This document shows positions 7,655 through 42,882 of a DNA stretch of 64,000 nt, in pieces. The DNA comes from Candidatus Binatia bacterium (lineage in GTDB: Bacteria; Desulfobacterota; Binatia; HRBIN30). Position 1 is the first letter of the stretch; each line of letters opens with the position of its first letter. The stretch is taken from contig BPIR01000003.1 in the NCBI GenBank assembly GCA_026004215.1, positions 250,879 to 314,878 on the forward strand, written 5' to 3'. The translations under genes were made by a program, and so were the position numbers. Below the pieces are notes generated by a model that saw only the letters and a list, made by a program, of their open reading frames with translations, made no database searches and was not told the origin of the DNA.

Positions 7655-7670
7655 GGCTCGCCTCCTTTGC

Positions 7671-9215: not shown

Positions 9216-9239
9216 TGCTCGATCCCCCCTCGCTCCGCT

Positions 9240-10319: not shown

Positions 10320-10327
10320 GCCTCACC

Positions 10328-15837: not shown

Positions 15838-17010
15838 TCACGCCAAACCGCAGTCGGCCAGAAGCCGAGCGAGGACTCGTTCGGCGGCAAAAAAATTCTC
15901 GGCTATGGCGCGGGCGGCTTCGCAATGGTGCTTGTAGTTCGCTTCGATTCGATCCAGGGCCGCGAGAGCGCCTTCGAGGTCGCTGAACGCCAACAAGCCC
16001 TCGCCCACCGGCACGGAGCGGGAATAGCCGGTATCCTGTAACACGACGGGCTTTCCGGAAGCCAGATAACTCGCACTGCGGGTGGCGAACCAACCGCTAC
16101 GCGTGGCCACGTAAGCATTTTTGGCGATGCTCCACTCGCCGCGGGAGTGCTGCAAAAACCGCTGGTACGCGCGCGGAGTGCGCGAGCAACGATACCCGTC
16201 CAAAACCTCCCATCCGTGCGCCCGGAGTTGCTCTCGGGGCGCTGCCCCGGATAGGGCGAGCCGCAGCCGTACACGTGCATGGCGCGGGAGGTCGAGAAAT
16301 TTGAGGAACTCGACATCCTTCTCCCCGTAAGCGACGCCGGCGATGCGCGGTGGTTGGAGATCCGTTTTCCACGACATGACCGTAGTGTACCACCGCGCTC
16401 GCGGCCTGAAGACGAACGGCCAATCTTGCAAGCAAATCGGTTGGCGGGTGGGTTTCCAATCGAGGCCGCAAGCGGGCAAGCGGCAATCCGGCGCACCCAT
16501 GTTTTCGGCGAGCGTGAAAAAGTGCGTGTGCTTTCGGACCAAGGCAACGGAAAACGACTGGTCTTCTGTGGCCGTTCCCTGTTCCGCTGCCCACAGCTTG
16601 GCGTGGGTGTAGCCCGGGTCCGAGTCGAGATACGCAACGACACGCGCACCTCGGTAGCTTTCACGCAACCAACAGGCTCCCGAAACGTTTAGGAACAAAT
16701 CCGACCGGTCGCAGAACGCTCGCACCTTGCGTTCCTCCCAGCCGTGGAACTGGCCATCGGCGGCACGCACAGCCCACTGCTGCGCGGCCCGCTTCGTTTT
16801 GAGCTGAAGCGCTCGGCGGAGGTAGCGGATGCCGAACGAAGGGTCGGGGGTAAAGGTGGCGGCGCGAGGGTCGTAAAACCACTGGCCCGTATCTTCTAAG
16901 TACAGGACGTCCCAGCCGAGGGTTTCGAATCCGCGTACGTAGGCCAAATAGTCCCAGGCCACTCCGCCGAGAGGATACGTTGCCACTAAACCGGTGACCA
17001 CCACTTTCAT
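15838..17010 (-). CDS. glycosyltransferase-like protein, paralog 3 of 3
   Basis: MKVVVTGLVATYPLGGVAWDYLAYVRGFETLGWDVLYLED...SGWFATRSASYLASGKPVVLQDTGY. 4-nt overlap with the upstream ABC gene. Confidence 0.55.
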   Translation of the reverse strand: MKVVVTGLVATYPLGGVAWDYLAYVRGFETLGWDVLYLEDTGQWFYDPRAATFTPDPSFGIRYLRRALQLKTKRAAQQWAVRAADGQFHGWEERKVRAFCDRSDLFLNVSGACWLRESYRGARVVAYLDSDPGYTHAKLWAAEQGTATEDQSFSVALVRKHTHFFTLAENMGAPDCRLPACGLDWKPTRQPICLQDWPFVFRPRARWYTTVMSWKTDLQPPRIAGVAYGEKDVEFLKFLDLPRHARVRLRLALSGAAPREQLRAHGWEVLDGYRCSRTPRAYQRFLQHSRGEWSIAKNAYVATRSGWFATRSASYLASGKPVVLQDTGYSRSVPVGEGLLAFSDLEGALAALDRIEANYKHHCEAARAIAENFFAAERVLARLLADCGLA

Positions 17011-25313: not shown

Positions 25314-25853
25314 GTGTCGATGTTGGTACGCTGGTTCAAAGAGCAGTGGCCTGTGGTCCGTGTGGTGGCGACCTTCTTGGGGATCATTCTCGCTGTCTTT
25401 GCAGCGACGGACTACGCACCGCTGGCTGACCGCTTGAACTTTGCCGAGTGGATGGCGCAGTTCGCTACGTGGGCCAGTTCCTTTTTGTTGCGTGCCTTGG
25501 GGCCGGTGCTGGGGTTTGCGATCAGTGTGCAAGGCACGCGCATCACTGCTGGTGGCTTTGCGGTGGACGTTACGGAAGCGTGTTCCGGTGTGGTCCCGAC
25601 GGCCATTTACGGCGCCGCGGTGCTGGCGTATCCGGCCAGTTGGCGGGCGCGCGCCATTGGCCTCGCCCTCGGCACTGTTGTGATTCACACTTTGAACGTG
25701 CTGCGGGTGGTCGGCCTGTTTCTGGTTGGGTTGTTTGCGAACCCGTACTTTCATTACACGCATGTGTACTTGGCGCAGGCGCTCGTGATCGTGGTGGCAG
25801 TGGCCACCTGGGTGTACTGGGCTCAACGCTTCGTTCATGTCCCTGGCCGTTGA
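25314..25853 (+). CDS. exosortase/archaeosortase-family transpeptidase, minimal (about 180 aa) form
   Basis: Polytopic membrane protein with the family's Cys/Arg/His triad in order: VDVTEACSGVVP, HTLNVLRVVG, YFHYTHVYLAQA. GAGGAG lies 9 nt upstream of GTG 25314; ATG 25320 is also possible. Confidence 0.75.
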   Translation: MSMLVRWFKEQWPVVRVVATFLGIILAVFAATDYAPLADRLNFAEWMAQFATWASSFLLRALGPVLGFAISVQGTRITAGGFAVDVTEACSGVVPTAIYGAAVLAYPASWRARAIGLALGTVVIHTLNVLRVVGLFLVGLFANPYFHYTHVYLAQALVIVVAVATWVYWAQRFVHVPGR

Positions 25854-26451
25854 CCCACTGCGATTTCTCGGGCAGCTTTTGCTGTCCTTTGTCGCTTTAT
25901 TTTTTGTCTGGCTGTTCGTCGGGCCCTGGTACACGAGCTTCCTGGCCGTGCTGGCGGAATTGGCGGTGAGTATTGCCGACCGGCCGACCGCCGTGTGGTC
26001 CGCAGGGACCGCGCTGTTTTTCTGGCCGCGAGGCCTCGCGCTGCCCCCACAGCCACCGACCATCGCAGGGGAGTGGATCCAGGCGAATACCATCCTGCTG
26101 TTGGCACTGATGATTGCCACTCCGGCGGCGACTTGGGAAAAAAAAGGCAAGCGGCTGGCACTGGCGTTCGCGCTCGTACTCTTGTGGCAGGTGACCGAGC
26201 TCGTGTTGGCCATCCAGTTTGGATACGCCACCCAAGTGGACCCCCAGGCGTACAGTGCACGGGCGCGTTACCGCCTGGCCCTACTGACCAACCTAGCGAT
26301 GTACGTGGACACGCAAGTCGTTCCGTTCATGATCTGGGCGGGCATTCATTTTCGCGAGCTTTTGGCGAGGGCCTTACGCCGTCCGAGTAGCCAGGGAGAA
26401 GCACAAACGGTACGTGCAAAGAAGCACAGGAGTGGGCGTCACTCGACTTGA
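25837..26451 (+). CDS. polytopic membrane protein translationally coupled to the exosortase gene
   Basis: ATG 25837 overlaps the last 17 nt of the exosortase ORF. Four to five hydrophobic segments (LLLSFVALFFVWLFVGPWY..., ILLLALMIATPAA..., LALAFALVLLWQV...). Basic C-terminal tail. No family recognised with certainty. Confidence 0.6.
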   Translation: MSLAVDPLRFLGQLLLSFVALFFVWLFVGPWYTSFLAVLAELAVSIADRPTAVWSAGTALFFWPRGLALPPQPPTIAGEWIQANTILLLALMIATPAATWEKKGKRLALAFALVLLWQVTELVLAIQFGYATQVDPQAYSARARYRLALLTNLAMYVDTQVVPFMIWAGIHFRELLARALRRPSSQGEAQTVRAKKHRSGRHST

Positions 26452-29400
26452 ACGGCTTCCAGGCGCACCGCGGATCGCGCCAGGGCCGGCGATGCCGAAC
26501 TTACTTCGACCCAGAGCGTGGCCGGCAAGGTCATGGCTTCCGCACTCGCAGCCGCAAAGTGCAGTTGGCCGCCGACCGCGCGTTGGGCCACGAGCGGTGG
26601 CTTGCCCTGCACCACCAGGCGGGCACCAATGGAGCGCACGCGTCGCGGATCGTAAGTCACGCGGGCTTCCAGCGCCGAGAACGCGGTGGGAAGGGCGATA
26701 CGGTAAGGGATGCGGTGCAGCGTTTGCCGGCCGCGCCGCAAGAGCCGCGGCTGTCCCCGCTGGACGCGTCCGATTGCCCCCTGAACCGCCGGAGGAGTTT
26801 GCCACGACGCGTTCACGTCGCCGATGAGAACCCCGAGAAAGTCTTGCCCACTCGCACTGGCGCCGAGTGGGGCGTATTCGATGGCGCCGCTCACACATGG
26901 GCTGAGAGATGGCTGGGGCATCAGAAGAGACTGATTGGGAACCGGGTCCGGTACGGGGATGAACTGCCAAGGAGACCCACAGCTCACCGTCGCCGGGAGT
27001 GTCGCAATAGCCCCCACGACGTAGCGAAGCAGCACGGCGGCATCGGCCGCAGTCACTTGACCCGATGCATCCACGTCCGCTGCGAGCGCCTCGCTCGTGC
27101 TCAATGTTCGTAAGCCCACTGCGCCCTGCAAAATCATCACCGCGTCGCTTGCGGTGATCGCTCCCGAGCCGCTGGCATCGAGCCATGGCTCGATGCGGTT
27201 CGATCCGACAACGGCTTGCCCAAAGGTGAACGTTCCTGTCGAGTCGGTCATGACCTCGACGGGGGGATTGGCCAGACGCACGTGTGTGCCCGCCATCGGC
27301 TGCAGACTTCCGTGGTAGCGAATAACGCCCGAGAGTTGGACGGTGGGCACGGTCGTCGCCGTGGGGGACATTGTTGGAGAAAAGCTCGCGGTTTGAGTGG
27401 GCGTCTGGGTACGGGAAGGTGTCGCCGTCCGAGTTGGGCTCGCCGTTGCGGTGTGCGTTCGTGTGAACGTCGGCGAGGGCGACGCAGTTGGGGACCGCGT
27501 GGCGGTTCGACTCGGCGTTGCGGTGTCGGTCGGTGTGAAGCTCGGCGTGCGGGTGTGTGTGGGTGTTCCCGAGAATGTGCGGGTTGGGGTCAACGTTGGG
27601 CTGGGTGTTTCGCTGCGAGTGGCAGTGGCCGTCTGTGTCGGAGTGAGAGTGCGTGTCGCCGTCATGGTGGCGGTGGGAGCGGGCGTCGAGGTCCAGGACG
27701 GGGTCGGGGTGAGGGAAGGTGTGGTCGTGATCGTTGGCGAAGGTGTTTCCGTAAACGTCGGCGTGATCGTTGGGGTGGCGCTCGGCGGCAAAGTTTGTGT
27801 GAATGTCGGCGTGGAGGTCGCCGTTCCGGTTGCAGTGGGAGGCACGGTATCGGTGGGAGTGGCGGAGACCGTTGGCGTGTTCGTGTGAGTCGCTGTGGCG
27901 CTGAGCGTGGGAGTCCACGAGGGCGTGAACGTGGATGTCGGAGTGCGAGACGGCGTTGCGGTGTTGGTGGGAGTTCGGGTTGCGGTCTCGGTTGCCGTCG
28001 CCGTGAACGTACGCGTCGGCGTCCCTGTGCGCGTCGGTGTTGCGGTAAAGCTGGCCGTCGGCGTGCGCGTAGGGGTCCGCGTGGTCGTGGGTGTACGGGT
28101 GAGCGACGGCGTTGGCGTCGCTGTCAGGGTTCTCGTGGGTGTGACGGTGGCAGTATCGGTTGCCGTTGGGCTGGGTGTGGGGCTGCGCGTTTCCGTTGGG
28201 GTGAAGCTAGGGCCGGAGTAGGGGTAAACGAACTGCATCGCCGCGATGTCATCTGCCCGAACCTCAGCGCAGCGGCCATCGTTGTGCGCCCGATAATACA
28301 TTGTGGCGTCTTTGAGTGTGAAGTTAGGCTCGGTAGGGTTTTCCGAAGAATGCCCGAGGCCTATGCTGTGGCCCACTTCATGAGTCAGCACCTCGGCAAC
28401 CAAGCACGGGGTCCAAAATTGAGGGCACTGCGTAGACCAGCCGTCGTTGAGAACGACTTTGCCGGTGGTGATCGCGTTGAAAGTCGTGCCGTTCACGGTG
28501 ACCTGGTAAAACCCGCTGGAGCAATAGCCTCCAATTGCGAGCGTGCCGGAGCAATTGTTGGGGTCGCTGATTTCGCCCCGTGGATCGTCGAACACGATGC
28601 GGTTGAAGCCGCAACCGCCGTAACCGAGCGGAGTCGGGGTGGGAAATCCAGGAGCTGGTGTGGGAGTGGGGCTGATGACGCCGCCGTAGTTCAACACCAG
28701 TCCCGCTCCGGGCACAGAGCTCCACGCGGCCAACGCGTCGGCGACGGCTTGCATCGAGGCTGTCGGACCTAGCCCAGAGTCGATGGTGCTCTCATACGTC
28801 ACGGGCGTGCCCGAGTCGGCTTGGTGCCAGCGCGCCGGCGGGCTACCGAGCAGGGTAAAGGCCGCGTGATACTCGTAAAGCGCGCTCGGGTCCTCGACTG
28901 CACTCGCAGTCGGAGGTGCACTGGGCATGCTTCCCGGGTTTTCGGAACTTCCAGAAGCCAGTGCGCGAATCAGATCGAGAAAAGTCTCTAGCTCTTGTTC
29001 GCGTGGCGCCGCCGAGGCAAACCCTCCGCCCGGTGCGGCGAAGACCGAGCCCGGTCCCGGATCGCCCACGGCGACGCGCACTCCGTCGCTACGCTGTCGA
29101 ATCCCGAACTTTCCCAGAGCGAGCGAGTTGATCTGCCAATGACCCTCACGGTCTCGCGCGAGGAACAGCACCACGTCTTCGCCGAGAAAGAACTGTGGGG
29201 CCCCGAAAATCCACTCGATGCGCTCTCCCACCTGCCCGCCGGGCACGCGCACGTTCACACTGGGTTCGGGCAGCGCACCTTTGATGGTTTCGAACACCCG
29301 CACGCCAATCCAAGTGGCGATTGCGTCATCTCCGGTGATTGTGGAGCGAATTTCTGTGACCCGTCCGACGACGATGCACTCCGAACTCGCGACTAAGGCT

Positions 29401-29507
29401 TCGTCGCTCATGGGCACGAACGTGGTGGCCCTTGCCGCAAGAGCAGTCAAGCAAGTCGCCACCAGCGAAGCGAGAAAAATTGCCCGACAACCGATCGAAT
29501 GCTGCAT
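26439..29507 (-). CDS. secreted metzincin (matrixin-like) protease - PT linker - CarboxypepD_reg-like - dockerin-like - cohesin-like
   Basis: Start set at ATG 29507 ([27 protein letters not shown] signal). [12 protein letters not shown] plus Met-turn ATMYY. About 290-aa Pro/Thr linker. LSGVIRYHG...TDSTGTFTF. Dockerin loops [17 protein letters not shown] and [23 protein letters not shown]-terminal [13 protein letters not shown] block. Confidence 0.75.
27341..28210 (-). repeat. Pro/Thr-rich low-complexity linker coding region (about 290 codons)
   Basis: Runs from [18 protein letters not shown]... to ...[15 protein letters not shown]. Produces spurious GV-rich and Arg-rich ORFs in other frames. 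Confidence 0.9.
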
Positions 29508-29610
29508 GCGGAACAAATTCCTCGTCAGTCTGATACTGGGATTCGTGCCACCGCGGTGGAGGGTGCACAAGTGAGAATTTGCGCTCGCTCCGACAAGGCG
29601 ACCCGCGAGC

Positions 29611-32600
29611 CTATTCGATGCTCGACTGGGTGATGATGACCTGTCTTCGGCTGGGTCGTGCGCCCTGCCCGAAGCTGAGCCAACCAAGGATGTCGGGAGC
29701 TGGATTTGCGTGGACACGGGCGAGTGCGAAGCTGATTTCATCCGGTCCGATCCGGTAAGCGGCGAGGGCGGATAGCGATTTGGAGCGGAGCGAAAGTTTT
29801 GCACGCCCGAGCCGATCTCGGTCGAAGCGAATTCGTGCGGTCACCGCATTCCACGAGCCAGCGCCACGAACTTCGATGGGTACTCGCCACTGCCCGCGAA
29901 AGTGCCGGGGCGTCCCTAGTCGGATCGAGACGGGCTTCTGTGCAAGTTCTGCTTTTCGTTGTCGCAACGCCGCTCGGGCGATCAGGCCCGATCCGTCCAC
30001 CCGTGCAGACTGGAAATCGCCGTTACAATCTCCCATCAACCCGGAGACAAAGTCGAGACCCTGAATGTCTTGCATGACGCCACTGAGCGACACCTGCAAG
30101 ACCGTCCCACAGTTGTTCGTCGTGACCGGCGTCGGCGTGGCCACCGGCGGGAGCGAGCCAGCGGGCAGGACGATCCACGAGCCCACGCAGGAGTTCGCGG
30201 GCGCTATGCCCACGACGTAGCGCAGTATCGCCACGGCATCCGAAGCAGTTAGGGAGCCGTTTCCGTCCGCGTCGCAAGTCTTTTGTTTGAGCTCGTTTCC
30301 AGAAACCGTGCCGGTGACCATCCGAAGCACCTCGACCGCATCGCCGGCACTGATGGGCTGACTACCGGTGCTGATGCGCGCCATGAGGGTGTGCGCCTCA
30401 TCAGGTAAAGCGGCAACTCGCACAGACCCAGGGGGCACGCCATCGATTTGGTACGCTCCATCGCTTCCAGTAAGCGCAAGCAGGGAACCGAAATCGCTCT
30501 CCGCCCGCACCGGAACGTTGGGAAGTGGAGAGGTGACATCGAAGTAACCCACCCGGCCACTGAGACGCAGCGCGGCAAGTGTGGGTGTAGCGGTAGGTGT
30601 CGGGCTTGCGGTGTTGGAGGGCCGTGGGCTCGCGGTAAAAGTTTCGGTCGGCGTGGGCGTGCGGGTCGGGCTGCTGGTGGGCGACGAAGTGGGCGTGCGT
30701 GTCGGTGTTTGGGAAGGAGACGACGACGGCGATGGAGTGGGCGATCGTGTCGGCGTTTCGGTTCGGGTTCGCGTTGGCGTTGTCGTGCTGGACGGGGTGC
30801 GCGTCGCCGTCCGAGTTGGAGTTCGCGTTGGGGTCAACGTCAGCGTAAACGTGTTGGTCGCGCTGGCCGTGGAGGTAGCCGTGCGGGTTGGCGTGTGCGT
30901 GCGCGTGGGCGTTGCGGTGAGGGTCGAGGTGTGTGTCGCCGTGAGTGTAGGTGTCAAGGTGTGAGTCGAAGTGGGCGAGTTCGTTGCCGTGCGCGTCGGA
31001 GTGAACGTGTTCGTCGGGGTACGTGTGAACGTCACCGTGGGCGTGCTCGACGGAGTGAACGTCGGAGTGGACGTACGGGTGTAGGTTCTCGTCGGCGTCA
31101 TCGTTCGGGTGGGCGTAAAGGTGAACGTGTTCGTGGCCGTGGGTGTCTGACTGGGTGTGGACGTGGCCGTGGCTGTGGGCGACCACGTGCGAGTGGGCGT
31201 GATCGTGGGCGACGGTGTGTCGGTGCGGGTCGGCGTTCGAGTCGGGGTACCTGTGGGCGTAAAGGAGTTCGTGGGGGTGAATGTGGAGGTTGGAGAACGA
31301 CTCGGCGTTTGGGTCGGCGTGGTCGTTGGTGTGCTCGTGTTGGTTGCGGTGGCAGTGACTGTCGGCGTCTGAGTGGGAGTGGGGGTCCCTGTTGCCGTGA
31401 AGGAGTTCGTTGCTGTGGCGCTGGCAGTGGGCGTAAACGTCGGCGAAGGGGAACGTGTCGGGCTGGGGCTCGCTGTCGGAGTTGGCCGGTTGGTTGGGGT
31501 CCACGCGGCAGTAGCGGTTGGGCTCGGAGTACTGGTGGGCACACTGGTTGGCGGCGGAGGCAGGGTAAAGTCGAGCGTGGCCACTCGCACGCGCGCGGCA
31601 TCGGGGACCGAGAGGAACAGATGGCCGTCGCTGTCCAGCGTTAGGCCGGTTACTCGCGAGATGCCCGCGGCCAGTGCCGGGCCGCCGTCTCCCGTATTCA
31701 ACGCAGTGCCATTGCCCACCACCGTCGTGATGACTCCGCTCGCCGCGTCCACTCGCCGGATCCGGTAGTTGCCCGCATCGGCAATCAGCAAATTTCCGAA
31801 CAGATCGAATGCAATGCGCGTGGGTGCCGAGAGTTGCGCTTGCGTGGCGGGTCCCCCGTCTCCGCTAAAGCCAGCCCAACCGGTGCCCGCAATGCGTTCC
31901 AGCAAACCGCCGCGAATACGGCGGATCATGTTGTTGCCGCGGTCCACGAAATACAAGCTGCCATCCGGCCCGATGGCCACGTCGGTGGGACCGGCGAGCG
32001 GGGACTGTGCTGCTACGGCGCCATCGGGCGGGTTGCCCCACGAGCCGTTGCCGGCAACCGTGGTGATGATCCCCGCTTCCACCTTGCGCACGCGGTTGTT
32101 CTGCAAATCCGCGATGTACAAAATGCGGCCATCCGCGGAAACGGCCACGCTCCAAGGGTTGGCCAGCGTCGCTTGTGTGGCTGGGATTCCGTCACCGTTG
32201 TATCCGAACGCTCCCGTGCCTGCGATTGTGGAAATGACGCCGGTTGTCGCGTCTAGCTTCCTCACGCGGTGGCCGTTGAGTTCGGCAATATAAAGGTTGC
32301 CCGACATGTCGGCCGCGACGGCGAGCGGATTTGTCAGTTGAGCGCTAATCGCCAAGCCGCCGTCTCCGCAAGGAGAGCCTGTGCTGCAGGGGCTGCCGTT
32401 GCCCGCCACCGTGGTGATTGTCCCGGTTAGCGAGCTGACCATTCGCACCCGGTGATTGGCGCTGTCCGCAATGTACAGCTCGAAGCCCGCACCATTGGTA
32501 AACTCGTGTACGAGCAGGCCCATGGGATCTACCAGCGCGTCCGCCGCCGTGCCGCCGTCGCCCACGCCTCCGCCAACGAGCGGCGACACGATACCGCTCG

Positions 32601-33831
32601 GTGGCACCGCACGTACGCGATCTTCCGTGTTGGGCGGAGCTGCCACGTACTGGCCAATGTATACGGCAGCCCGTAGCACCATCAGTGGCAAGACCCGTAA
32701 GCAGGGCAAAGCTCGTTTGCGTCGCCAGCCCACCGTCCGGTGAGGGCGCGCGCGTGCCGTTGCCGGCGACGGTTTTGATGATGGACTGTCCAGTAATCAG
32801 ACCGCCAACCGATTCGAGTCGGCGGACGCGGTTGTTGCCGACGTCCGTGAAGTACAAATTTCCGCCGGGTCGAAGGCGAGCTTGCCCGGATTGAAAATCC
32901 TCGCTGCAGATGCCGGCCCATTGTCGCCAGTAAAAGCCTGAATGCCGTCGCCAACCACGGTTGTAATCGTTCCTTGCATGTCCACGCGGCGAATACGCGA
33001 GTTGGCGAAATCGGCGATGAAGAGGTTGCCCGCGTCATCGAGTGCGACGTGCCACGGGTTGGCGAGCTTGGCTTGAGTAGCCGGGCCACCGTCGCCGCTG
33101 TATCCCCATGCCCCCGTGCCGGCGACCGTAGTGATGATGCCGTTCGGTCCGACCTTGCGCACGCGGTTACCGTCGGACTCTGCAATATAAAGGTTGCCTG
33201 CGCTGTCGAGGGCAAGCCCGCGCGGCGCATTCACGCTGGCACTGGTCGCGGGGCCACCATCGCCGTTGCTGAACCCACGGCCGTCCCCGACGACGGTGAC
33301 GATAGTGCCGTCGGATGAAACCTTGCGTACGCGGTGGTTGAACGTATCGGCAACGTACAACTCGCCCCCGGCTCCGCAGATCACGTCTGTTGGAAAATTC
33401 AGTTGCGCCGCCAAGGCCGGGCCTCCATCGCCGGAAAAACCTTTGGTGCCGGTACCGGCTACGGTCGTGATGGTCAGCTTTACGAGATCCACTTTGCGCA
33501 CTCGGTGATTGAGCCCATCGGCGATAAACAGCACTCGCCCGCAAACCGCGAGCCCACGCGGGTCCACGATGCCATTCCATGCAACGCCGCCGTCGCCCAC
33601 GCCTCCCCCAACCACAGTGGCGATGAAGCCCGTGGGCGGAAAGTCGAGAGCCGAGCTGCGAGGGCACCAGGGCGCAAAGAAAAAAACCAGAAAGTAAGCG
33701 AGCAAGTGCGGAAATCCGCTTCGCCTGGTGGAGCAGAGTCTCGCAACGCTGGGTGGGAGTTGGTGAAACTTGTTACGCATTCGGAGTTTCCAGAACTGCC
33801 GGCACCGGATGCATGATGCCTTTCTTGTCAC
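29611..33831 (-). pseudogene. double NHL-repeat beta-propeller - PT linker - CarboxypepD_reg-like - dockerin-like - cohesin-like protein, frame broken twice
   Basis: Three consecutive track ORFs (32797..33831, 32345..32857, 29611..32733) each carry NHL repeats (e.g. [56 protein letters not shown]). One NHL blade is split at about 32862 (KLAFDPA / GNLYFTDVGNN), and a second shift lies at about 32660-32700. Likely start is ATG 33780. The C-terminal cassette is as in 26439..29507. Confidence 0.7.
30583..31565 (-). repeat. Pro/Thr-rich linker coding region (about 330 codons)
   Basis: Runs from [24 protein letters not shown]... to ...[10 protein letters not shown]. Confidence 0.9.
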
Positions 33832-34310: not shown

Positions 34311-34379
34311 GAAGTCCCCGTTAGCGGGGCTCTTTTGGGCAGAACGTAGAACGTGGCACAGAAGCAAAGGAGTTTGCGG

Positions 34380-35621
34380 ATGGCGAGAGGACGAATGCAG
34401 AGGGGAGATGTGGGTTCGCGGAGGATTGTTTGTGGCTTGGCGGGTGTCGTCATCGGCGTACTTTGCGTTGGCCGCCAGGCGGAAGCCCAGTTCAGCCTTT
34501 CGTTCAACCAGCGGGCTTCGAACGGTACGGTCTATGAAGTCATCGTCGTGCCGAACCCTCCCTTGAGTGCCGGCGCCGATCAGATGCGCATCACGACCAT
34601 CGCCGGTTCCACATCCGGTGTTCAGTCGTGTTCTTCCACCGGAGGGAGTTCGGGTCAAAACACTGCGGCGGTTGCTGGGGTGGATCCGAACATCGGTTCC
34701 TTGCATCCGTTTGCTGCGGTCCTTCGCACCAACGTATTGACGCCCGCAAACGTATCCTCTGTTTCGTTTAACGCCGGTGGAGGCGGGCGCTTGACGATCG
34801 GCGGAATTGATATCTGCGCCAACCCGGCGGACTGCACCGGCGGCGCTCCGGATGCGACGATCTTCGACCTCGATGGGAACCCAGTTGCGGCGGGCTCCGT
34901 GACGGGCACCGCCGTGCCGCCGGCTTGCATCGCCTCCGGCGTAACGGCTTTGTGCTCTTCGGGTAACTTCAACACTTTCGGTTTCGACTTGCCCCGCGAT
35001 TCGAACACAAAAGCTTGCCAAGCCCCGCCCACTACGAATCGGACGGTATGTGGTTCGCCGCCAACGGACGGCTTTACCGTAGGCCCGGGCCAGGTCGTGG
35101 TATTCATCTATGACGGCAACTTGGCGAACACCGGATTTAGTGTAGGCGCGGCTGGTTTTGGGATCGACACGGACGGGGTCAACAATCCTAATTGTGCGGC
35201 AAATAGCGTGATCACGGCCGACGGCCAAAACCCGAGCGCTCCGCCCCCACCGCCTCCGACGCCCACCAACACTCCGTCAAACACGCCTACACCCACGAGC
35301 ACTCCGACGCACACCTTTACCCTGACCCCGACGGACACGCCGACGAACACTCCCACGCCTACCAATACACCGACACCCACGTTCACCCTGACGCCGACGA
35401 ACACCCCGACAAACACGCGTACGAATACGCCAACCGCTACCCGTACGAACACACCAACGAATACCCCCACAAACACGCACACACCGACACCCAGCCCGTC
35501 GCCCACACCGCCGCCGATACCGGTGGTGCCCTCTCCGATCTCGCCTGCGGGTGCGGCCATGATCAGTGGCCTGGCTGCGGCCCTGGTGTGGATGATGCGT
35601 CGGGCACTGCGCCGAGGCTAG
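34380..35621 (+). CDS. secreted protein: unknown Cys-rich N-domain - PT repeats - PEP-CTERM-like C-terminal sorting signal (paralog A)
   Basis: AAGGAG 7 nt upstream of ATG 34380; signal-like [24 protein letters not shown]. About 260-aa domain alignable to paralog B. TPTNTP repeats. Tail [38 protein letters not shown]. Confidence 0.8.
35239..35510 (+). repeat. Pro/Thr repeat coding region (about 90 codons)
   Basis: Runs from [25 protein letters not shown]... to ...[12 protein letters not shown]. Confidence 0.9.
35511..35618 (+). other. C-terminal tripartite sorting signal, copy A
   Basis: PPIPVVPSP motif, 17-18 hydrophobic residues ([16 protein letters not shown]), then basic RRALRRG at the extreme C-terminus. 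Confidence 0.65.
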
Positions 35622-35668
35622 GAAAGTTCACGAAGGGTTAACCGGACCGTTTTGGAGGCTAGGGAGCC

Positions 35669-37144
35669 GTGAATTGGCTAGAGAGGCATTTCCGCTTGGT
35701 ATGTCGCGGCGCCTTAGCCTCTGCCCTTGTGGCGGCGCTGATTGCTAGCTGGCGAGTGGAAGTACTGGCGCAGCTCAATCAAGCCTCCTCCCAGCGGGCG
35801 GCGGACGGCACGGTGTACCATGTGATCATTGTTCCGCCGACACCGCTCAATGCAGGTGCGGAGGAAGTGCGTGTCACCACGTTAGCCGGTGGGGTTCAGG
35901 GTTTGGTATCTTGCTCCGGGGTTGTGGGCGGACAGGCCGCACTGGCGCGCGCGCTCGTCGGCGCCGATCCGGGGGCTGGTCAAACCCTTTTCCCGGCTGC
36001 GCAGATCAGCCGTACCACCGTTCTGAACCCTCCTTCCTTGACGGTGTCGTTCTCTCCGGGAGGAGGGGGCCGGCTCACGTTCGGATCGGGTCCGACCGGC
36101 TTGCAAATTTGCCGTAACCCTGCGGACTGCACAGGCCCCGAAACGGTCGTGCCCTTGGTATCCATTTCTACTGCTGACAGTAGTGTGCCGAAGGCGTGCG
36201 TGGCGTCGAATGTCGGTGCAGGCTGTATGAGCGCCTTGGTGAACACGTACGGCTTCGGCTTGGATGCGAACAACGACGGGAACTGCGACGCGCCCCCGAC
36301 CACCGACACGAACGTGTGCGCCTCCACCCCTGCGGACGGTTTCAGTATCCCGGCCGGACGAGCCATCGTGTTCGTGTACGATAGCGGGCTTGCGAATACG
36401 GGATTTACCATCGGTGTTGCGGGCTTCGGCATAGATACGGACGGCACCAACGACCCGCAGTGTAGCGCTAACCAGGTTGTGAGTGCGGACGGACAAAACC
36501 AAAGCGCACCACCGCCTCCACCACCGACATTCACGCCGACGAATACACCCACTGAGACCCCCACGCCGACAAACACACCGACGGATACCCCAACGCAAAC
36601 TCCTACGCATACCCCGACGAGTACGCCCACGGAGACACCGACACACACTCCGACGAATACACCGACCAACACGCCGACGCACACTCCGACGAGTACGCCG
36701 ACCAACACCCCGACGAACACCCCGACAAACACGCCGACGAACACGCCGACCAACACGCCGACGCACACTCCAACGAACACGCCTACCAACACACCGACGC
36801 ACACGCCGACGCACACCCCGACGAACACGCCGACCAATACGCCCACACACACTCCCACGAACACTCCGACCAATACGCCCACCCATACTCCCACCCCGAC
36901 TCCGACGCCGACGTCAACGGACACCCCGACCCCAACGCCCACGGCAACGTTTACCCCCACCCACACGATGACGCCTACAGACACGCCGACCCTTACGCCC
37001 ACCCGGACGCGGACGCCGACGCGGACACCGCCGCCGATTCCGGTCATTCCCTCGCCGAGTGCGCCGAGCGGACTGGTGATGATTGCTACTCTGGCAATCG
37101 CACTGGCGTGGCTCTTGGGCCGCTCGCTGCGAACGAGCCGTTAA
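35669..37144 (+). CDS. secreted protein: unknown Cys-rich N-domain - PT repeats - PEP-CTERM-like C-terminal sorting signal (paralog B)
   Basis: GTG 35669; hydrophobic N-terminus [14 protein letters not shown]. Shares with paralog A the blocks DGTVYxVIxVP, GGGGRLT, CxNPADCTG, [15 protein letters not shown] and [14 protein letters not shown]. Tail [39 protein letters not shown]. Confidence 0.8.
36506..37027 (+). repeat. 12-nt periodic tandem repeat coding (T-P-T-[NH])n, about 175 codons
   Basis: Reiterated units ACGCCGACGAAC / ACGCCGACCAAC / ACGCCGACGCAC, giving [14 protein letters not shown]... Confidence 0.9.
37028..37141 (+). other. C-terminal tripartite sorting signal, copy B
   Basis: [10 protein letters not shown] motif + [15 protein letters not shown] + GRSLRTSR. 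Confidence 0.65.
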
Positions 37145-37371
37145 GCTCCTATCCTGCACTGCACCGAGCGCAGGAACGTCGAAGCTCGCGCTGGCCTCGA
37201 CGCAAAACAATTTGACTGTGGCTGAAGTGTTCGCCTCTAGCGCGTTCCACGTGCGGATCACGTGCGACGGCATCGGCAACATTCAATGGTGCTGACCCAG
37301 CAGCAGAGTGTGCGGTGCTTGCGAAAATGACTTGCGAACGCTCCTTCGGTGGGTGAGAAGAACAAGGCACA

Positions 37372-37395
37372 GTGCAGTGATCGGTCTCACTGCAC
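37372..37395. promoter_or_regulatory. perfect 9-bp inverted repeat just upstream of the cohesin-dockerin gene start
   Basis: GTGCAGTGA-TCGGTC-TCACTGCAC, ending 8 nt before ATG 37404. Could be an operator or a 5' UTR hairpin. Confidence 0.3.
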
Positions 37396-37403
37396 GAGCG
37401 GGC

Positions 37404-39734
37404 ATGAGCGTGAACGAATATCGGCATCGAACGATCGGCTTCCGTTGGGCGTTGCTTTCGCTGGTGGTTTGGCCAATTGCCGTCGCGGGGCAGACCCGTA
37501 ACGTGAGCTTGCAGCCCGGAGTCGCTGCTGTGGGCCTGGGTTCGCCCGTGACCCTGGAAGTGCGCGTAGACGATCCGAGTCAAATCATCGCCTACAACTT
37601 GGGGATAAGTTACGACTCTGCGTTGCTGGCGGTGAACAGCGACCTTGTGTTCAGCGTGCCCGGATGCCTAGCGCAAGGGAACCGGCAGGACCCGGGCAAA
37701 ATATGCATCGCTATCGCTTGCCCCAACGCGTTATCGGGGTCCAATGTGAAACTCGCAGAAATCGCCTTCACGGGGCTGGCCAATGGCCTTACCGCAGTCA
37801 GTTTCGCGAACGTCACCTGCGGCTCCAGCAGCGTGCCCGCTTGCTTGTTGGAAAAGGACGGGGGCGGCTCGTTGAGTTGCGCCACTACGGGTGCATCCGT
37901 TCAGGTCGGGGCGACGCCAACACCTAGCCCAACCTCGACGTTCACCAGTAGCGTGACCCCTACGCTAACCGCCACCCTCACCCCAAGTCGGACGCCAACG
38001 AGAACACCCACTCCGACGAATACGCAGACACCCACCCGAACTCACACTCCGACGCGCTCACCCACGAACACGCCCACTCCCACGAATTCGCCCACCGCGA
38101 CGCGCACCGACACCGCAACTCCAAGCCCCAGTTCCACTCCGTCCCCAACGAACACTCCAACTACCACGGCAACATCCAGCCCGAGCTTTACGCGCACGAA
38201 TTCGGCCACGCCCACTGTTTCCGCGACTGCGACGGCGAGCCCGACCCGGTCCTTTACGCCGTCGGCGACAGCTTCCAGGACCGCAACGGTGACTTTTACC
38301 GCCACGCGAACCGCAACGCCTACCCCGAGCGCGACTATGTCAGCGACAGCCACGCACACGCGTACGCCAACGCGGTCGGGCACGCCGACGCCTACGGCCA
38401 CGCCTAGCGTGACCCGCTCCCCCACGGCGACGGTAACCGGCACCTTACCGCCTACTTTCTCGCCAACGCGTTCGTTCACCCCGACTTTAACGGCTACCTT
38501 GTCGGCGACGCCGACGCGAACGTTTACGCCGAGCCCGAGCCCGACGCACACGTTCACTCAGTCGCCCACGCCGAGCCCCTCGGCCACTCGTTCGCCGACT
38601 TTTTCTCCGAGCCTCTCGCCGACTCGTTCCTTCACCTCGACCCCATCGCCCACTTCGACACACAGTCCAACGGCCCCGGCTTCGCCGACGCCTTCACCCA
38701 CCTTCACGCGCAGCCCGACAGCCACTCGCTCGGCGACGGCATCGCCGACACGGACAGTTCCCTTCACGGCGACTCCCACGCGCACGGGCACCTTCACAGC
38801 TTCGGCGACGCAAACCCGAACGGGCTCTCCAACGGGCACCCCTTCGGGAACATCCACGCCGACATTCACGCTGCCGCCGGCGTTTACGGCTACCGCCACG
38901 CGTACTTCTGCGACACCGTTGACCCAATCGCCGACCAGTACCCCGACTCGTCCCACCACTCCGACGAACACAAAACCACCGACGATTACGCCAACCCCCA
39001 CCCACACCACCACCGCCAGCGCCACGATTTCCCCAAGCCCGACTTGGTCCCCGAGCGTGACGCCGACTTCCTCAGCTACGCCGTCAGTCACGGAAAGCCC
39101 GAGCCCGACGAGTAGTCCAACCCTGACGGAGACCGAAACGCCAACCCCGAGTGCAACGGAAAGCCCGAGCCCGACTCTCACTCCAACTTCAACGGCGGAA
39201 CCTACCCCCACTGCATCGTGGAGTCCCACGTTCTCTCCGGCACCGACGGAAACTGCCACCGCTACGCCGACGGCCGTTCCCACGGAAACGGCCACCGCTA
39301 CACCGCTCGCCTCGCCTGCGGAGACGCCCTCGCTGACGCCGTCACCGGAGTTGCCCACCGAGTCGCCTACGCCAAGTCCAACGGTGTCGCCCACGTTCTC
39401 TCCGTCTGAAGGGCCGACTCCGACGGAGACTCGCGAACCCACGCCCACGGTCACCGCTACGGCAACCGTGGAAGAACCGGTGGCGACGCCCACGATGACG
39501 CCAACAGCGGGTTTGACGGTGTGTCCCGGAGACTGTGACGGGGATGGTCAGGTGGCAGTGTTCGAGATCGTCCGCATGGTGAACGTGCTGCTAGGTGCCT
39601 TGCCTGTGGATGCTTGTACCGCGGGAGACCTGTGCGGCGACGGTCGAATTACCATCGATGAAGTGATCTTGGCGGTGCGCGCGTTACTGCAGGGATGCCC
39701 GTTCCCGGTCAACCCCGACCGTTGTGGGCCGTGA
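37404..39734 (+). CDS. secreted cohesin-like domain - about 530-aa PT linker - dockerin-like domain protein
   Basis: Start at ATG 37404 (signal [18 protein letters not shown]). Cohesin-like pattern [32 protein letters not shown]...[21 protein letters not shown]-terminal dockerin pair [22 protein letters not shown] / [21 protein letters not shown]. Confidence 0.75.
37911..39510 (+). repeat. Pro/Thr/Ser-rich linker coding region (about 530 codons)
   Basis: Runs from [18 protein letters not shown]... to ...[14 protein letters not shown]. The antisense strand gives long GV-rich pseudo-ORFs. Confidence 0.9.
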
Positions 39735-39765: not shown

Positions 39766-40953
39766 TCAAATGTATGGTTCCAGCGCGTGCGCCAGTGCGC
39801 GCGCCAGTTGGCGCGGCGTACGAGCGGCGAGGGTCTTTGAACAGTGACGCGCATAGCGCGGGAAAGCACTATCTCCGCTGCCCCAGCGCGCGGGGTCCTC
39901 CGGCTGAATCCACACCACAGCGCGCGACCTTTGGTGGATTGCCCGGAGGAGCTCCGCTCTCGGCGGGCGGTAGTTGTTGCGCCCGTCGCCCAGCACGAGC
40001 ACGACGGTGTTGCGATCGATCTCCTTCGCGCGTTCGGCGTAAAAGACCTGAAGCACGGCGCCAAAGTCCGAGCGCGCGTGGGGATCGAACGGCGTGCAGG
40101 GGAAGGCGCGGTCGCCCCGAACCTCCAACTCGACCAGGGAGTCTACGAACCCGTAAAACCGGGCCCTGCGAAACAACGGGCGCGCCGATGCGAGCAACGC
40201 GAGAAAGAATTCGCTGGCCGATGCCACCGAGTAGGAAAGATCGCAAAACGCCACCAGCTTGTTGTGCCGCGGGCGCCTGCGCCGCACCACCGGTCGCAGA
40301 AAAATCCCGCCCGAAGAGACCGCTTTGCGGAAGGTTGCACGGAAGTCCAACGAGCCGCGGCGAGCCCGCTTTTTTCTCCGCGCGAGGCGGCACCGAAACA
40401 GCCGGCTGAGCTTGGCCATGGGTTCGCGGAGCTCCTCGATCATCAGAGGGTCGAGGTGCAGCCAGGGACGGTCCCAACCGACCTGGCGAGCCGTATCCTC
40501 GCCGCCGGTGAAAGGTTCCGGCTTTTGCAGCGGCGAATTCTCGGGTCCGTCCGCCACCCACAATTCGCGGGTCGGTCCGGCTTCGCGCTGGCTTTGTGCG
40601 CGGATGAGCTCGCGGAGAGAGCGTGCCCGACCGCGTGTGCGGCGGGCTTCGGTCCGAGGGACATCACCGCGGCCGTTTGCCCGACCCGCAAAGGCGCCTG
40701 AGTCAGACCGGCGGGGGCGGCGCCGCCTTTCCGTTGTAGCCGGGGGAAGTGGGAAAAATCGTTCGAACAACGCGTCGAACATCGAACGCTGCTCCGCCGT
40801 TTTGACGAGGCTTGCCGCCAGCGTTGCTCGCAACACGGCTCGGTCGATCCCCAAGGCAGCCACCCCCTGGAGGGCGTCCGCAACTTCGGCCGGGCTAACG
40901 TCCACGCCGTGTTCGCGCAAAGCCTGGACAAAGGCGAGAAGCCGCCGTTGCAC
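39766..40953 (-). CDS. VWA domain protein, CoxE-like
   Basis: LDFRATFRKAVSSGG...RRRRPRHNKLVAFCDLSYSVASAS (DxSxS MIDAS-like)...VVLVLGDGRNNY...AVVWIQPE. Lies 11 nt downstream of a MoxR gene. Confidence 0.7.
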   Translation of the reverse strand: MQRRLLAFVQALREHGVDVSPAEVADALQGVAALGIDRAVLRATLAASLVKTAEQRSMFDALFERFFPLPPATTERRRRPRRSDSGAFAGRANGRGDVPRTEARRTRGRARSLRELIRAQSQREAGPTRELWVADGPENSPLQKPEPFTGGEDTARQVGWDRPWLHLDPLMIEELREPMAKLSRLFRCRLARRKKRARRGSLDFRATFRKAVSSGGIFLRPVVRRRRPRHNKLVAFCDLSYSVASASEFFLALLASARPLFRRARFYGFVDSLVELEVRGDRAFPCTPFDPHARSDFGAVLQVFYAERAKEIDRNTVVLVLGDGRNNYRPPRAELLRAIHQRSRAVVWIQPEDPARWGSGDSAFPRYARHCSKTLAARTPRQLARALAHALEPYI

Positions 40954-40964
40954 GCCGACCCACC

Positions 40965-41849
40965 TCAGCCCGCGCGCCCGGCGCTACCACCGACGAGCGA
41001 TAGCCAGCGTTGCTGGACCAGGGCGAGATCTTCCTCGTGCTTGAACAGCACACCCAAGATTGCGCGGGCCTTGGGGTCTTTGAGTTCGGAGATGCCCAAC
41101 GCCAGCAAAGCCTCTGCCCATGCAATGGTTTCTGCCACGCTCGGCTTCTTGCGCAGTTCCAGACGGCGTGCGGCTTGCACGCACCGCACAATGTGTTCGG
41201 CCAGCCGAGGTTCGAGCTGGGGAACCTTGAGCCGTACAATGGCCGCCTCTCGTTCCGGAGAAGGGAAGTCGAGAAAAAAGTACAAACAGCGCCGCCGCAG
41301 AGCGTCGGAAAGCTCGCGGCTACGATTGGAGGTCAGAATCACGGTGGGGCGATGCCGGGCTTGAATGGTGCCGAGCTCCGGAACGGATATTTGGAATTCT
41401 CCGAGAAATTCGAGCAAAAATGCCTCGAACTCCTCGTCTGCCTTGTCCACCTCGTCCACCAACAACACCGCCGGCTCGGCGCTCCTTAGAGCCTTGAGAA
41501 GCGGCCGGTCCAGCAAGTACTCCTCGGTAAAGATCTCATCGCGGAGAGCGCTCCATGGCGCGTCTCTTCGTTGGTCCACCTGCAAGCGCAGCAACTGCTT
41601 GTGGTAGTTCCACTCGTACAAGGCCTTGGCCTCATCCAACCCCTCGTAACACTGGAGGCGGTACAGCGGCCGATCGAGAGCTTCGCTCAACGCCCGGCCA
41701 ATGTCGGTCTTGCCGGCGCCCGCCGGACCTTCGACGAGGAGCGGCCGTTCGAGTGCCAGGCAAAGGTGCAGAACGGTAACGAGTTCCGGCGGCGCGATGT
41801 ATCGCGCCCGCTCCAAGGCTTGTTGCAGGTGTCCCAGATGCGCTGGCAT
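40965..41849 (-). CDS. MoxR-family AAA+ ATPase (CoxD-like)
   Basis: Start at ATG 41849. Walker A LLVEGPAGAGKT, Walker B LLVDEVDKA, and SNRSRELSDALRRRCLYFFLDFP typical of MoxR. Confidence 0.8.
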   Translation of the reverse strand: MPAHLGHLQQALERARYIAPPELVTVLHLCLALERPLLVEGPAGAGKTDIGRALSEALDRPLYRLQCYEGLDEAKALYEWNYHKQLLRLQVDQRRDAPWSALRDEIFTEEYLLDRPLLKALRSAEPAVLLVDEVDKADEEFEAFLLEFLGEFQISVPELGTIQARHRPTVILTSNRSRELSDALRRRCLYFFLDFPSPEREAAIVRLKVPQLEPRLAEHIVRCVQAARRLELRKKPSVAETIAWAEALLALGISELKDPKARAILGVLFKHEEDLALVQQRWLSLVGGSAGRAG

Positions 41850-41883
41850 GGCAACGGGATGCTTGCAGCGGGCGACCAGTTTC

Positions 41884-42882
41884 TCAACCGGTTGTACCTG
41901 CCTGCGGGCAGCCTTGGGTCGCGCTGCGAGGTCTCCCGCCCAGTTGCACACCACCCTCGACGAGGATCCGGCGCAGGTGTTGGATGCTGATATCGCGCAC
42001 GATGGCGCGTTGCAAAAGCGCCGTGCGCAAGCTCCGTAACGACCAGTACGGCCGCGCAAATCCGAATTCGGCTGGCGACCGAGAGGCCAGCGCCAAAATG
42101 TTCCGCCGAACTTCGGGCGTGAAGCGTAACGGTCGCATCGGCCGGCGAGGGGCTTGCAGGCCCAGAAGTCCGCGGTTGCGAAAACGCCGCAACCAGTGCC
42201 GGACAGAAGAACGGCCCATTCCTACAGCGGCGGCAATCTCTGCTTCGTCGAGCCCATTAGCGCGAGCGAGCACAATGCGCGCGCGGCGCGCGACCTCCGT
42301 TGGAGCGTGTGCCACCAGATGCTCGAGCCCGGCCCGTTGTTCGGGCGTGAGTTGCAGTGGAGCACTGCGCTTGCGCTGCCAAAATTCACGGGGAAGAGGA
42401 GTCCCGCGGAGGATTTGGCGCAAGCCTTCGACGCTGATATGTTTGACCAGACCTCTGCGGAGGATATGCAACTGCAGCTTCCGCAGCGACCAGCCTGCGA
42501 AGGGCTCACCCGCCGCACTGGGTGGACTCATCGCAATGCGAATAATGGCATCGCGCACGCTTCCCGTTACTCGCCGGGTTCCCGCCCTGGAAGAAGCATC
42601 GTGCAGCCCCGCAAGTCTCGTTTCCACGAAACGCCGTAACCAGCGGCGCACCGTCACGCGGCTCACCCCCACCTGCCGGGCGATCGCGCTCAGAGACTCG
42701 CCTCGCGCCCGTAGCAGCACAACACGGGCACGCCGTGACAGCGAGGGAGAGCCCTCCTGCCCGAGCCAGTGCAGCTCGGCTGCCTCGTCGTCGCGCAAGT
42801 GCACAAACCCGGGTAGCTGTTCCGAAACTCCCTTCGGAGTGCGCTGCGTACTCTTGACTCGGCCCACCCTCTCGACGGCCAT
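41884..42882 (-). CDS. tandem helix-turn-helix protein (two IS630-transposase-N-terminal-like HTH modules, no DDE domain)
   Basis: Two copies of the pattern RRARVVLLRARGESLSAIARQVGVSRVTVRRWLRRF / RRARIVLARANGLDEAEIAAAVGMGRSSVRHWLRRF, each followed by a winged-helix-like segment. No catalytic domain follows. Start uncertain (ATG 42882 or TTG 42927); see the upstream in-frame ORF. Confidence 0.6.
   Translation of the reverse strand: MAVERVGRVKSTQRTPKGVSEQLPGFVHLRDDEAAELHWLGQEGSPSLSRRARVVLLRARGESLSAIARQVGVSRVTVRRWLRRFVETRLAGLHDASSRAGTRRVTGSVRDAIIRIAMSPPSAAGEPFAGWSLRKLQLHILRRGLVKHISVEGLRQILRGTPLPREFWQRKRSAPLQLTPEQRAGLEHLVAHAPTEVARRARIVLARANGLDEAEIAAAVGMGRSSVRHWLRRFRNRGLLGLQAPRRPMRPLRFTPEVRRNILALASRSPAEFGFARPYWSLRSLRTALLQRAIVRDISIQHLRRILVEGGVQLGGRPRSATQGCPQAGTTG

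Follow-up and report, generated by a model that had tools for sequence, protein, structure and literature searches.

A tail shared by two tandem Binatia proteins

Do the similar ends of two adjacent genes in an uncultured bacterium disclose a sorting signal, and is that signal read by the exosortase encoded a few kilobases upstream? The question is raised by a stretch of 64,000 nt from a Candidatus Binatia bacterium (assembly GCA_026004215.1, contig BPIR01000003.1, positions 250,879 to 314,878; hereafter the window, GC content 62.7%), in which two predicted secreted proteins, A and B, end in a Pro/Ser-rich motif, a transmembrane (TM) helix, and basic residues. We consider it probable that this tail is a tripartite C-terminal sorting signal with which Candidatus Binatia mark many unrelated secreted proteins for an exosortase of a clade that is sister to XrtH (25314..25853) and its partner protein (25837..26451). 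The signal/exosortase pair is most likely genuine and apparently undescribed, yet of the conventional PEP-CTERM/exosortase type.

Proteins A and B are tandem paralogs on the plus strand, and both close in TPPPIPV[VI]PSPxxPxG, a hydrophobic helix, and basic residues. Their features, in window coordinates, are as follows (aa, amino acids; PT, Pro-Thr; HMM, hidden Markov model).

34353..35621, plus strand: tail protein A, 422 aa; signal peptide at ~34353..34487, Cys-containing beta-rich passenger, poly-Pro/PT linker at 35241..35504, and sorting tail (putative)
35505..35618 (stop codon 35619-35621), plus strand: tail A, 38 aa; 16-residue motif, TM helix, RRALRRG; 65.8 bits against the local tail HMM
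35669..37144, plus strand: tail protein B, 491 aa, paralog of A; signal peptide at ~35669..35770, passenger, PT linker at 36509..37024, and sorting tail (putative)
37025..37141 (stop codon 37142-37144), plus strand: tail B, 39 aa; 16-residue motif, TM helix, GRSLRTSR; 59.9 bits against the local tail HMM

The earlier note on this DNA, made from the letters alone, had placed both tails at the C-terminus after a PT spacer, and they are present as it described; its starts for them lay 3 to 6 nt late and are corrected above. The two proteins are 43% identical across their N-terminal ~280 aa and share a ~250-aa Cys-containing domain. Their linkers consist of PPPPPP plus PT repeats, which form tandem arrays of 12 to 36 bp (Tandem Repeats Finder). 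The tails are 58% identical overall and match at 11 of 12 residues of the motif, and their hydrophobic windows have a mean Kyte-Doolittle hydropathy of 1.9 to 2.7. All open reading frames (ORFs) of the window were checked, and no other one carries a further tail of this type. Gene conversion was rejected as the origin of the likeness between tails A and B, because identity between them is just 58% and other species carry the motif on unrelated proteins.

The passenger domain of A (34467..35240, ~250 aa, with conserved Cys) yielded a confident all-beta AlphaFold (AF2) model (pLDDT 83.7, pTM 0.84). It has no Pfam family, and a Foldseek search against the PDB found no relative (best E value 0.08, TM-score ≤0.22); the modeled fold may be uncharacterized.

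Recurrence of the tail on unrelated proteins

A profile of the tail alone was searched exhaustively against 1.84 billion protein cluster representatives (50% identity clusters). This search replaced an earlier word-index search with the tail alignment, which is insensitive to tails on long proteins and had given only 8 short gene-call fragments. The profile retrieved 107 cluster representatives at E≤1e-3, 46 of them at E≤1e-10, and matched every one at the extreme C-terminus; in the loci that were fetched, 89 of 89 tail matches stop 0 to 8 residues ahead of the stop codon. Because the 107 representatives come from 1.84 billion proteins and each match is at the extreme C-terminus, the tail is far beyond chance. 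Carriers with source labels come from Candidatus Binatia metagenome-assembled genomes (MAGs).

The consensus of 119 distinct tails is PP[IV]PV[VI][PSA]SPxSP[AS]G, followed by a TM helix (L..W.L) and then RR. Within the motif, P11 (100%), P16 (99%), and G21 (99%) are nearly invariant, and S15 (88%), P19 (86%), and V12 (84%) are strongly conserved. Columns 22 to 36 are hydrophobic, with L28 at 94%, W34 at 83%, and L36 at 89%; the basic cluster that follows is less uniform (R37, 76%; R38, 85%; R41, 63%). The motif had been noted as far better conserved between A and B than the PT repeats that flank it, which is correct; the real proof of its conservation is provided by the unrelated proteins that share it, not by two paralogs. 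Once the last 45 residues are removed, BLAST sorts the carriers into 22 components unrelated to one another, of which the A/B family is the largest, and the alignment of window protein A with carrier P0039 is confined to the tail. The passengers recognized by Pfam and NCBIfam models include choice-of-anchor D and Q, DUF11, SdrD-B, ice-binding, HYDIN/VesB-type immunoglobulin (Ig), DUF1573, CarboxypepD_reg, and Dicty_CTDC domains. Signal-peptide-like N-termini, called with a hydrophobicity heuristic (basic n-region plus hydrophobic h-region), are present in 63 of 73 full-length carriers versus 4 of 20 control ORFs, and the carriers that were negative resemble truncated gene calls. Several tails may occur at one locus: besides the two in the window, there are tandem pairs in L005, L013, L018, L032, L043, L090, and L096 and three tails in L081. 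Further carriers are scattered in housekeeping neighborhoods, which fits a one-to-many sorting system.

Eight attributes have been proposed for recognizing tripartite C-terminal sorting signals (Haft, bioRxiv 10.1101/2023.06.07.544157, section 5). They include a TM segment, a terminal basic cluster, a signal peptide on most carriers, and pairs of carriers that share the tail only; attribute 8 asks for homologs elsewhere that lack the tail or bear another signal (bioRxiv 10.1101/2023.06.07.544157). The tail displays attributes 1 to 7 and perhaps, in part, attribute 8: some passengers are "choice-of-anchor" domains, a name given for homologs that vary in their anchor signal, and individual homologs (below) have a different or degenerate C-terminus.

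Orthologs of A and B (P0001-P0012) retain the tail, in degenerate form in P0006, P0010, and P0012, and the homolog P0009 differs in its C-terminal region. In the distant orthologs P0006 and P0010, DUF4215 Cys-rich repeats replace the PT linker and the tail is reduced to PPPGxVAPAMSPLGG-TM-RR; in a degenerate tail of locus L013, it reads ..APAASPAG-TM-RRRR. These three tails preserve just an SP[AL]G core beside the helix, which appears from the alignments to be the most deeply conserved element. Because it is kept in the degenerate tails, the core is also the likeliest site of processing, if processing occurs as in related systems. The P0006/P0010 series reveals, in addition, which positions of the motif are dispensable.

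Comparison of the tail with curated CTERM models

Does the tail belong to a cataloged signal? We compared it with the models of NCBIfam release 20 and Pfam, using thresholds of E≤10 for the window tails and E≤0.1 for 83 carriers (NCBIfam) and E≤10 for the bare tails (Pfam). TIGR02595 (PEP-CTERM) and TIGR04174 (IPTL-CTERM) matched neither the window tails nor the 83 carriers at these thresholds, and Pfam PF07589 (PEP-CTERM) did not match the tails. The sole PEP-type match was one of low complexity to PEP_CTERM_MHFG (E≥0.014, far under the 100-bit cut-off). PF18203 (IPTL-CTERM) matched a single tail, the degenerate one of L013, at 12.1 bits versus a cut-off of 20.8 and through the TM part of the profile only. 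Two of the 83 carriers gave weak matches to VPXXXP-CTERM (TIGR04143; best E value, 0.005), and one gave a weak match to MYXO-CTERM (E value, 0.021). Because these weak hits prove that marginal matches to short domains do get reported, the missing true matches are meaningful. The tail is thus matched by no curated CTERM model (PEP-, IPTL-, VPXXXP-, or MYXO-CTERM). The motif columns contain no Glu, no acidic residue of any kind, and no conserved T-L or W-G. The comparison with IPTLxxWG tails was made through the curated TIGR04174 and PF18203 models.

Two likenesses drawn by the earlier note are qualified by these results. VPSP does stand in the place of VPEP, a positional analogy that extends no further. 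The resemblance to IPTL fails for the tail when tested with the IPTL-CTERM models and holds for the enzyme, as described below.

An exosortase clade next to XrtH and its partner gene

The candidate enzyme and its partner are encoded by overlapping genes.

25314..25853, plus strand: exosortase, 179 aa, of the Binatia-type sister clade of XrtH, proposed sorting enzyme; Pfam Exosortase_EpsH, TIGR04178
25837..26451, plus strand: partner membrane protein of 204 aa, its gene overlapping the exosortase 3' end; weak NF041730 match

The 179-aa protein carries the TIGR04178 signature (49 bits; cut-off, 23) and matches PF09721 (30.5 bits; cut-off, 25.7), which places it in the exosortase superfamily. Its best subtype model is TIGR04177 (XrtH), to which it scores 83.1 bits, under the cut-off of 86. 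Eight further clade members score 66.5 to 86.9 bits on this model and only P0146 (86.9) passes, so that 8 of the 9 tested lie below the cut-off; the XrtH-like proteins P0156 and P0161 reach 117.2 and 128.7 bits. The clade also has a secondary match to the archaeosortase B (ArtB) model, at 51 to 56 bits versus a cut-off of 150. In an alignment of 21 members, C90 (within ACSG), N128, R131, H147, and H150 are invariant; exosortases and archaeosortases act with a Cys/Arg/His triad and may act as transpeptidases. The homologs of the window exosortase divide sharply. An upper group (49 to 100% identity, ≥165 bits) has Candidatus Binatia MAGs as its named members, and after the drop follow proteins with ≤108 bits and 37 to 48% identity, several of which are labeled "exosortase H (IPTLxxWG-CTERM-specific)." Judged by scores and identities, the clade would be the nearest relative (sister group) of XrtH, a near miss rather than a member.

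When each GTDB species was represented by one genome, 34 species genomes proved to encode a member of the clade. About two thirds are labeled Ca. Binatia; the remaining ones bear mostly generic or "Deltaproteobacteria" labels, with one Myxococcales and one Margulisiibacteriota. The last two, JBBILD01 (L008, "Myxococcales") and DATKMS01 (L014/L043, "Candidatus Margulisiibacteriota"), have the Binatia-type exosortase module in Binatia-like synteny, DATKMS01 with tails as well, and are probably misclassified or contaminated bins.

A partner gene of ~200 aa lies directly downstream of the exosortase gene in all 34 genome loci. The window copy matches NF041730 (XrtH-associated membrane protein) at 25.4 bits (E value, 1e-5), short of the cut-off of 35, and partner proteins in relatives give faint matches to PF28117 (XrtH_assoc). 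The partner may act in sorting alongside the exosortase.

Linkage of tail genes with the exosortase

Evidence that tail and exosortase belong together comes from gene neighborhoods (±10-kb flanks for the exosortase genome loci) and from co-occurrence within MAGs. Tail genes lie 4 to 10 kb downstream of the exosortase and on the same strand in the window and in L001-L004, L013, L017, L018, L020, L032, and L090. In at least seven species, a contig carries complete tail genes within 10 kb downstream, and four more provide supporting cases; several of the tail-linked exosortases are just 49 to 52% identical to that of the window. In L090, L091, and L092, the syntenic slot is occupied by a passenger BLAST-unrelated to A and B; in L006, L007, and L023, the outer edge of the 10-kb flank takes in the start of a protein of the A/B tail family. 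A Joint Genome Institute contig of 102,700 bp is given as the source of exosortase P0140 and likewise of tail protein P0008, presumably one and the same contig (L005). Two MAGs encode exosortase and tails on different contigs (DATKMS01, contigs 39 and 241; JBGOUW01, contigs 280 and 56).

These data support the suggestion of the earlier note that the tails represent a possible new exosortase recognition class. It had named two outcomes that would speak against that idea: a tail confined to these two proteins with no co-variation with the exosortase, or a strong match to an existing CTERM model whose sortase lies elsewhere. Neither was found. The tail extends to 107 clusters and 22 BLAST-unrelated N-terminal groups, the PEP- and IPTL-CTERM models do not recognize it, and it appears to track the exosortase subtype of 25314..25853: in several species the two lie ~10 kb or less apart on one contig, two further cases place them in a single MAG, and the labels of both are mostly Candidatus Binatia.

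A proposed sorting mechanism and its alternatives

Tripartite signals are removed by dedicated membrane endopeptidases, and by analogy the following route may be proposed for the Binatia proteins. The N-terminal signal peptide would direct Sec export, after which the C-terminal helix and Arg cluster would keep the exported protein in the inner membrane, its Pro/Ser motif facing the periplasm. There, the motif would be read by the exosortase (polytopic, with Cys, Arg, and His), which would cut near the invariant SP[AS]G directly before the helix and so strip off the helix and the basic tail. The new C-terminus would probably be transferred to an acceptor in the envelope. The poly-Pro/PT linker would serve as a spacer and might be glycosylated.

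Several points weigh against this interpretation. Cleavage or anchoring in Binatia, which have no isolates, is extrapolated from other systems. PEP, PEF, PGF, and IPTLxxWG contain an acidic or aromatic signature residue; because the motif of the tail contains neither, its recognition by an exosortase is argued by analogy. The motif statistics are partly circular, as the sequences were retrieved by a profile of the motif, though the search was exhaustive and gave no internal match. Few named records underlie the taxonomic restriction of the tail. Finally, 26 of the 34 exosortase loci have no complete tail gene within the ±10-kb flanks, and an exosortase was seen in 0 of 43 metagenome tail loci, most of them contigs of <7 kb that are too short to inform linkage.

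How else might the tail be explained? One could take the pair for a lineage-specific flavor of XrtH/IPTLxxWG-CTERM, in which XrtH has diverged and the IPTL-CTERM tail has drifted. XrtH is indeed the best-scoring subtype for every clade member, and P0146 passes its cut-off; a short exosortase with an overlapping ~200-aa partner also occurs in the XrtH-type loci L041 and L093, and the partner weakly matches XrtH_assoc. Both motifs, moreover, open with I-P and close with G right before the helix, and the degenerate L013 tail has its faint IPTL-CTERM match. This explanation has to accommodate, however, the gap between clade members (≥165 bits) and XrtH-labeled proteins (≤108 bits, 37 to 48% identity), the position of 8 of the 9 tested members below a cut-off that XrtH-type sequences exceed at 117 to 129 bits, and the scores of the 83 carriers and the bare tails, all under threshold for TIGR04174 and PF18203. 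The defining T-L..W-G is also gone, and a 12-residue Pro/Ser motif with other invariant positions stands instead. On balance, a drifted XrtH system is unlikely. A different view would have the tail as an unprocessed anchor, a rigid polyproline stalk and TM helix that tether proteins permanently to the inner membrane, with the exosortase unrelated. The Pro-rich motif extends the Pro/Thr stalk and could be structural, processing of the tail is deduced by analogy, and the flanks of most exosortase loci lack a tail gene. Yet a passive stalk needs neither residues kept at 99 to 100% at fixed spacing nor the L/W/L of the helix across 22 passenger groups, and tail genes recur beside the exosortase module in divergent species. 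The Binatia carriers are, in addition, diderms, given that Omp85/TamB and a TonB-dependent receptor are encoded nearby, and in diderms, adhesin-like and ice-binding passengers anchored in the inner membrane would stay periplasmic. We therefore hold permanent anchoring to be very improbable.

It could also be that the tail is a genuine sorting signal served by another enzyme, either the adjacent membrane-anchored M1 metallopeptidase or a protease of the rhombosortase or myxosortase type encoded elsewhere. Several CTERM classes (GlyGly- and MYXO-CTERM) proved to use enzymes other than exosortases, and the M1 peptidase divergently adjoins the exosortase in 17 of 34 loci. That frequency compares poorly with the partner gene, present at 34 of 34, and the motif contains no invariant Cys, as the myxosortase type would have, and no GG, as the rhombosortase type would. 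No rhomboid or CPBP gene was found among the window ORFs scanned, and tails of this architecture have their established partner in the exosortase family; the chance that a different enzyme reads the signal is therefore slim indeed. Recognition by the Binatia-type exosortase is, in our judgment, the probable explanation of the tail.

Conserved neighborhood of the putative sorting genes

Further genes around the exosortase module are retained among relatives.

22544..25180, minus strand: M1-family metallopeptidase with an N-terminal TM segment; Pfam Peptidase_M1; divergently adjacent to the exosortase
26439..33831, minus strand: giant secreted dockerin/M10-like and NHL-repeat proteins, tail-free; between the exosortase module and the tail genes
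18790..21576, minus strand: fusion of a GH2-like domain and a GT2 glycosyltransferase; Pfam Glycos_transf_2, E value 2e-34; possible glycosylation link

The M1 peptidase lies upstream of the exosortase in half of the genome loci (17/34) and likewise in L001-L004 and L090, and it might contribute to sorting as an accessory protease. The order GT2-CBS-M1-exosortase is retained in 10 of 34 loci, and the arrangement of giant proteins is syntenic in L001-L005, L090, L092, and ~13 to 16 of the 34 genome loci. An ABC exporter (17007..18788) and the GH2-like/GT2 fusion are encoded between the exosortase and two successive DUF1800/DUF1501 gene pairs (6196..13275, minus strand). As evidence for a sorting system, the nearby GT2 glycosyltransferase and ABC exporter are circumstantial.

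Among the giants, the 1120-aa protein (26439..29804, minus strand) combines an above-threshold dockerin with a zinc-protease motif like that of matrixins. The NHL-repeat giant is divided by an in-frame TGA (32797-32799, minus strand) into ORFs of 344 aa (32797..33831) and 1040 aa (29611..32733). Its relative in L001 is a single 1389-aa gene, to which the window translation aligns across the stop with 66.7% identity; the TGA could be a nonsense mutation or mark a pseudogene, or it could be an assembly error or a case of recoding. Downstream of the tail genes, an 808-aa protein (37308..39734, plus strand) is extremely rich in Pro, Thr, and Ser; its N-terminal domain weakly resembles cohesin and its C-terminus a dockerin/EF-hand, in both cases below threshold. 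Together, these proteins give hints of cohesin-dockerin-type extracellular assemblies in Binatia. The idea that A and B themselves are cohesin-type scaffoldins anchoring the neighboring dockerin giants was dropped, as the first cohesin in the Foldseek search on the passenger ranked only 45 (E value, 3.5).

Tail-gene clusters often precede a convergent VWA_CoxE gene, usually with an AAA ATPase gene (39766..42059, minus strand, in the window; also L001, L043, L090, L091, L096, and L097). The best NCBIfam names for the two products, MadC and MadB, are both below cut-off, and the association recurs even where no exosortase is nearby.

The GT2 glycosyltransferase, ABC exporter, membrane M1 peptidase, dockerin-bearing giants, and VWA/AAA pair constitute a conserved island in the window. 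A signature restricted to Pro, Ser, Gly, and aliphatic residues, the conserved L28, W34, and L36 inside the helix, and this island could reflect a distinct processing chemistry or acceptor; for instance, attachment might be glycan-linked, or recognition intramembrane with the M1 peptidase making a second cut. The system could also organize a surface layer peculiar to Binatia, built of beta-rich proteins with a fold that lacks a solved relative. Such departures from the conventional scheme have, in our view, a small chance of being correct. The probable reading stays that of a conventional exosortase acting on a lineage-specific signal.

Implications

Candidatus Binatia (Binatota) are an uncultured lineage assembled from many environmental metagenomes. 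In the literature searched, we found nothing on their envelope biology and no paper that mentions Binatia together with exosortases. A lineage-specific signal would give a sequence-based catalog of their surface proteome, with at least 107 protein clusters that include adhesin-like, ice-binding, and Ig-like proteins. It also makes new HMMs possible for signal and exosortase, which are today annotated as "hypothetical protein" and "exosortase/archaeosortase family protein." As a natural variant near XrtH with a very different motif, the pair may help to work out how exosortases read their substrates. The finding is useful for annotating an uncultured phylum and conceptually incremental, many signal/sortase pairs having been cataloged already.

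Comparison with known systems

By HMM score and identity (37 to 48%), the nearest enzyme subfamily is XrtH (TIGR04177), with its IPTLxxWG-CTERM signal (TIGR04174/PF18203) and associated membrane protein (NF041730/PF28117). The Binatia system resembles it in the short exosortase of ~180 to 190 aa, the overlapping gene for a partner of ~200 aa, the tripartite tail, and a motif with I-P at its start and G at the helix boundary. It differs in the score gap, in the 8 of 9 members under the curated cut-off, and in a tail without T-L..W-G that has a longer Pro/Ser motif and a conserved helix L/W/L. XrtH is known from Beta- and Gammaproteobacteria, whereas the source labels of the Binatia-type clade point to Ca. 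Binatia. No tailed substrate is encoded in the flanks of the XrtH-type loci L041 and L093, and the plasmid collection yielded no XrtH. The sole mention of IPTL-CTERM in the literature searched concerns Methylomirabilis lanthanidiphila, whose surface-layer (S-layer) protein mela_00855 has an InterPro-predicted IPTL-CTERM domain and a C-terminal tail that was the only part missed by proteomics (PMC8671808). That gap may lend indirect support to processing in a related XrtH-type system.

With XrtA/PEP-CTERM (TIGR02595/PF07589), the Binatia system shares the tripartite design, the one-to-many relation that we propose between enzyme and substrates, Thr/Pro-rich low-complexity linkers, signal peptides, and loci that contain glycosyltransferases. 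Unlike that system, it has a motif without P-E-P or an acidic residue and without a model match, and its exosortase is short, in contrast to the long XrtA type. ArtB/VPXXXP-CTERM (TIGR04144/TIGR04143) is similar in its Pro-rich signature beginning with V-P, with weak matches on 2 of 83 carriers and an enzyme match of 51 to 56 bits; the prolines are spaced differently (VPSPxSP in place of VPxxxP), the enzyme falls far short of the cut-off of 150, and the Binatia system is bacterial, not archaeal.

From archaeosortase A (ArtA)/PGF-CTERM, exemplified by the S-layer glycoprotein of Haloferax volcanii, the Binatia system differs in motif, domain of life, and enzyme subfamily. ArtA, an exosortase-family enzyme with Cys, Arg, and His, removes the C-terminal helix beside a Pro-Gly-containing motif, and a lipid anchor is then attached. 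It provides the mechanistic precedent for the Binatia system, which is known here from sequences alone.

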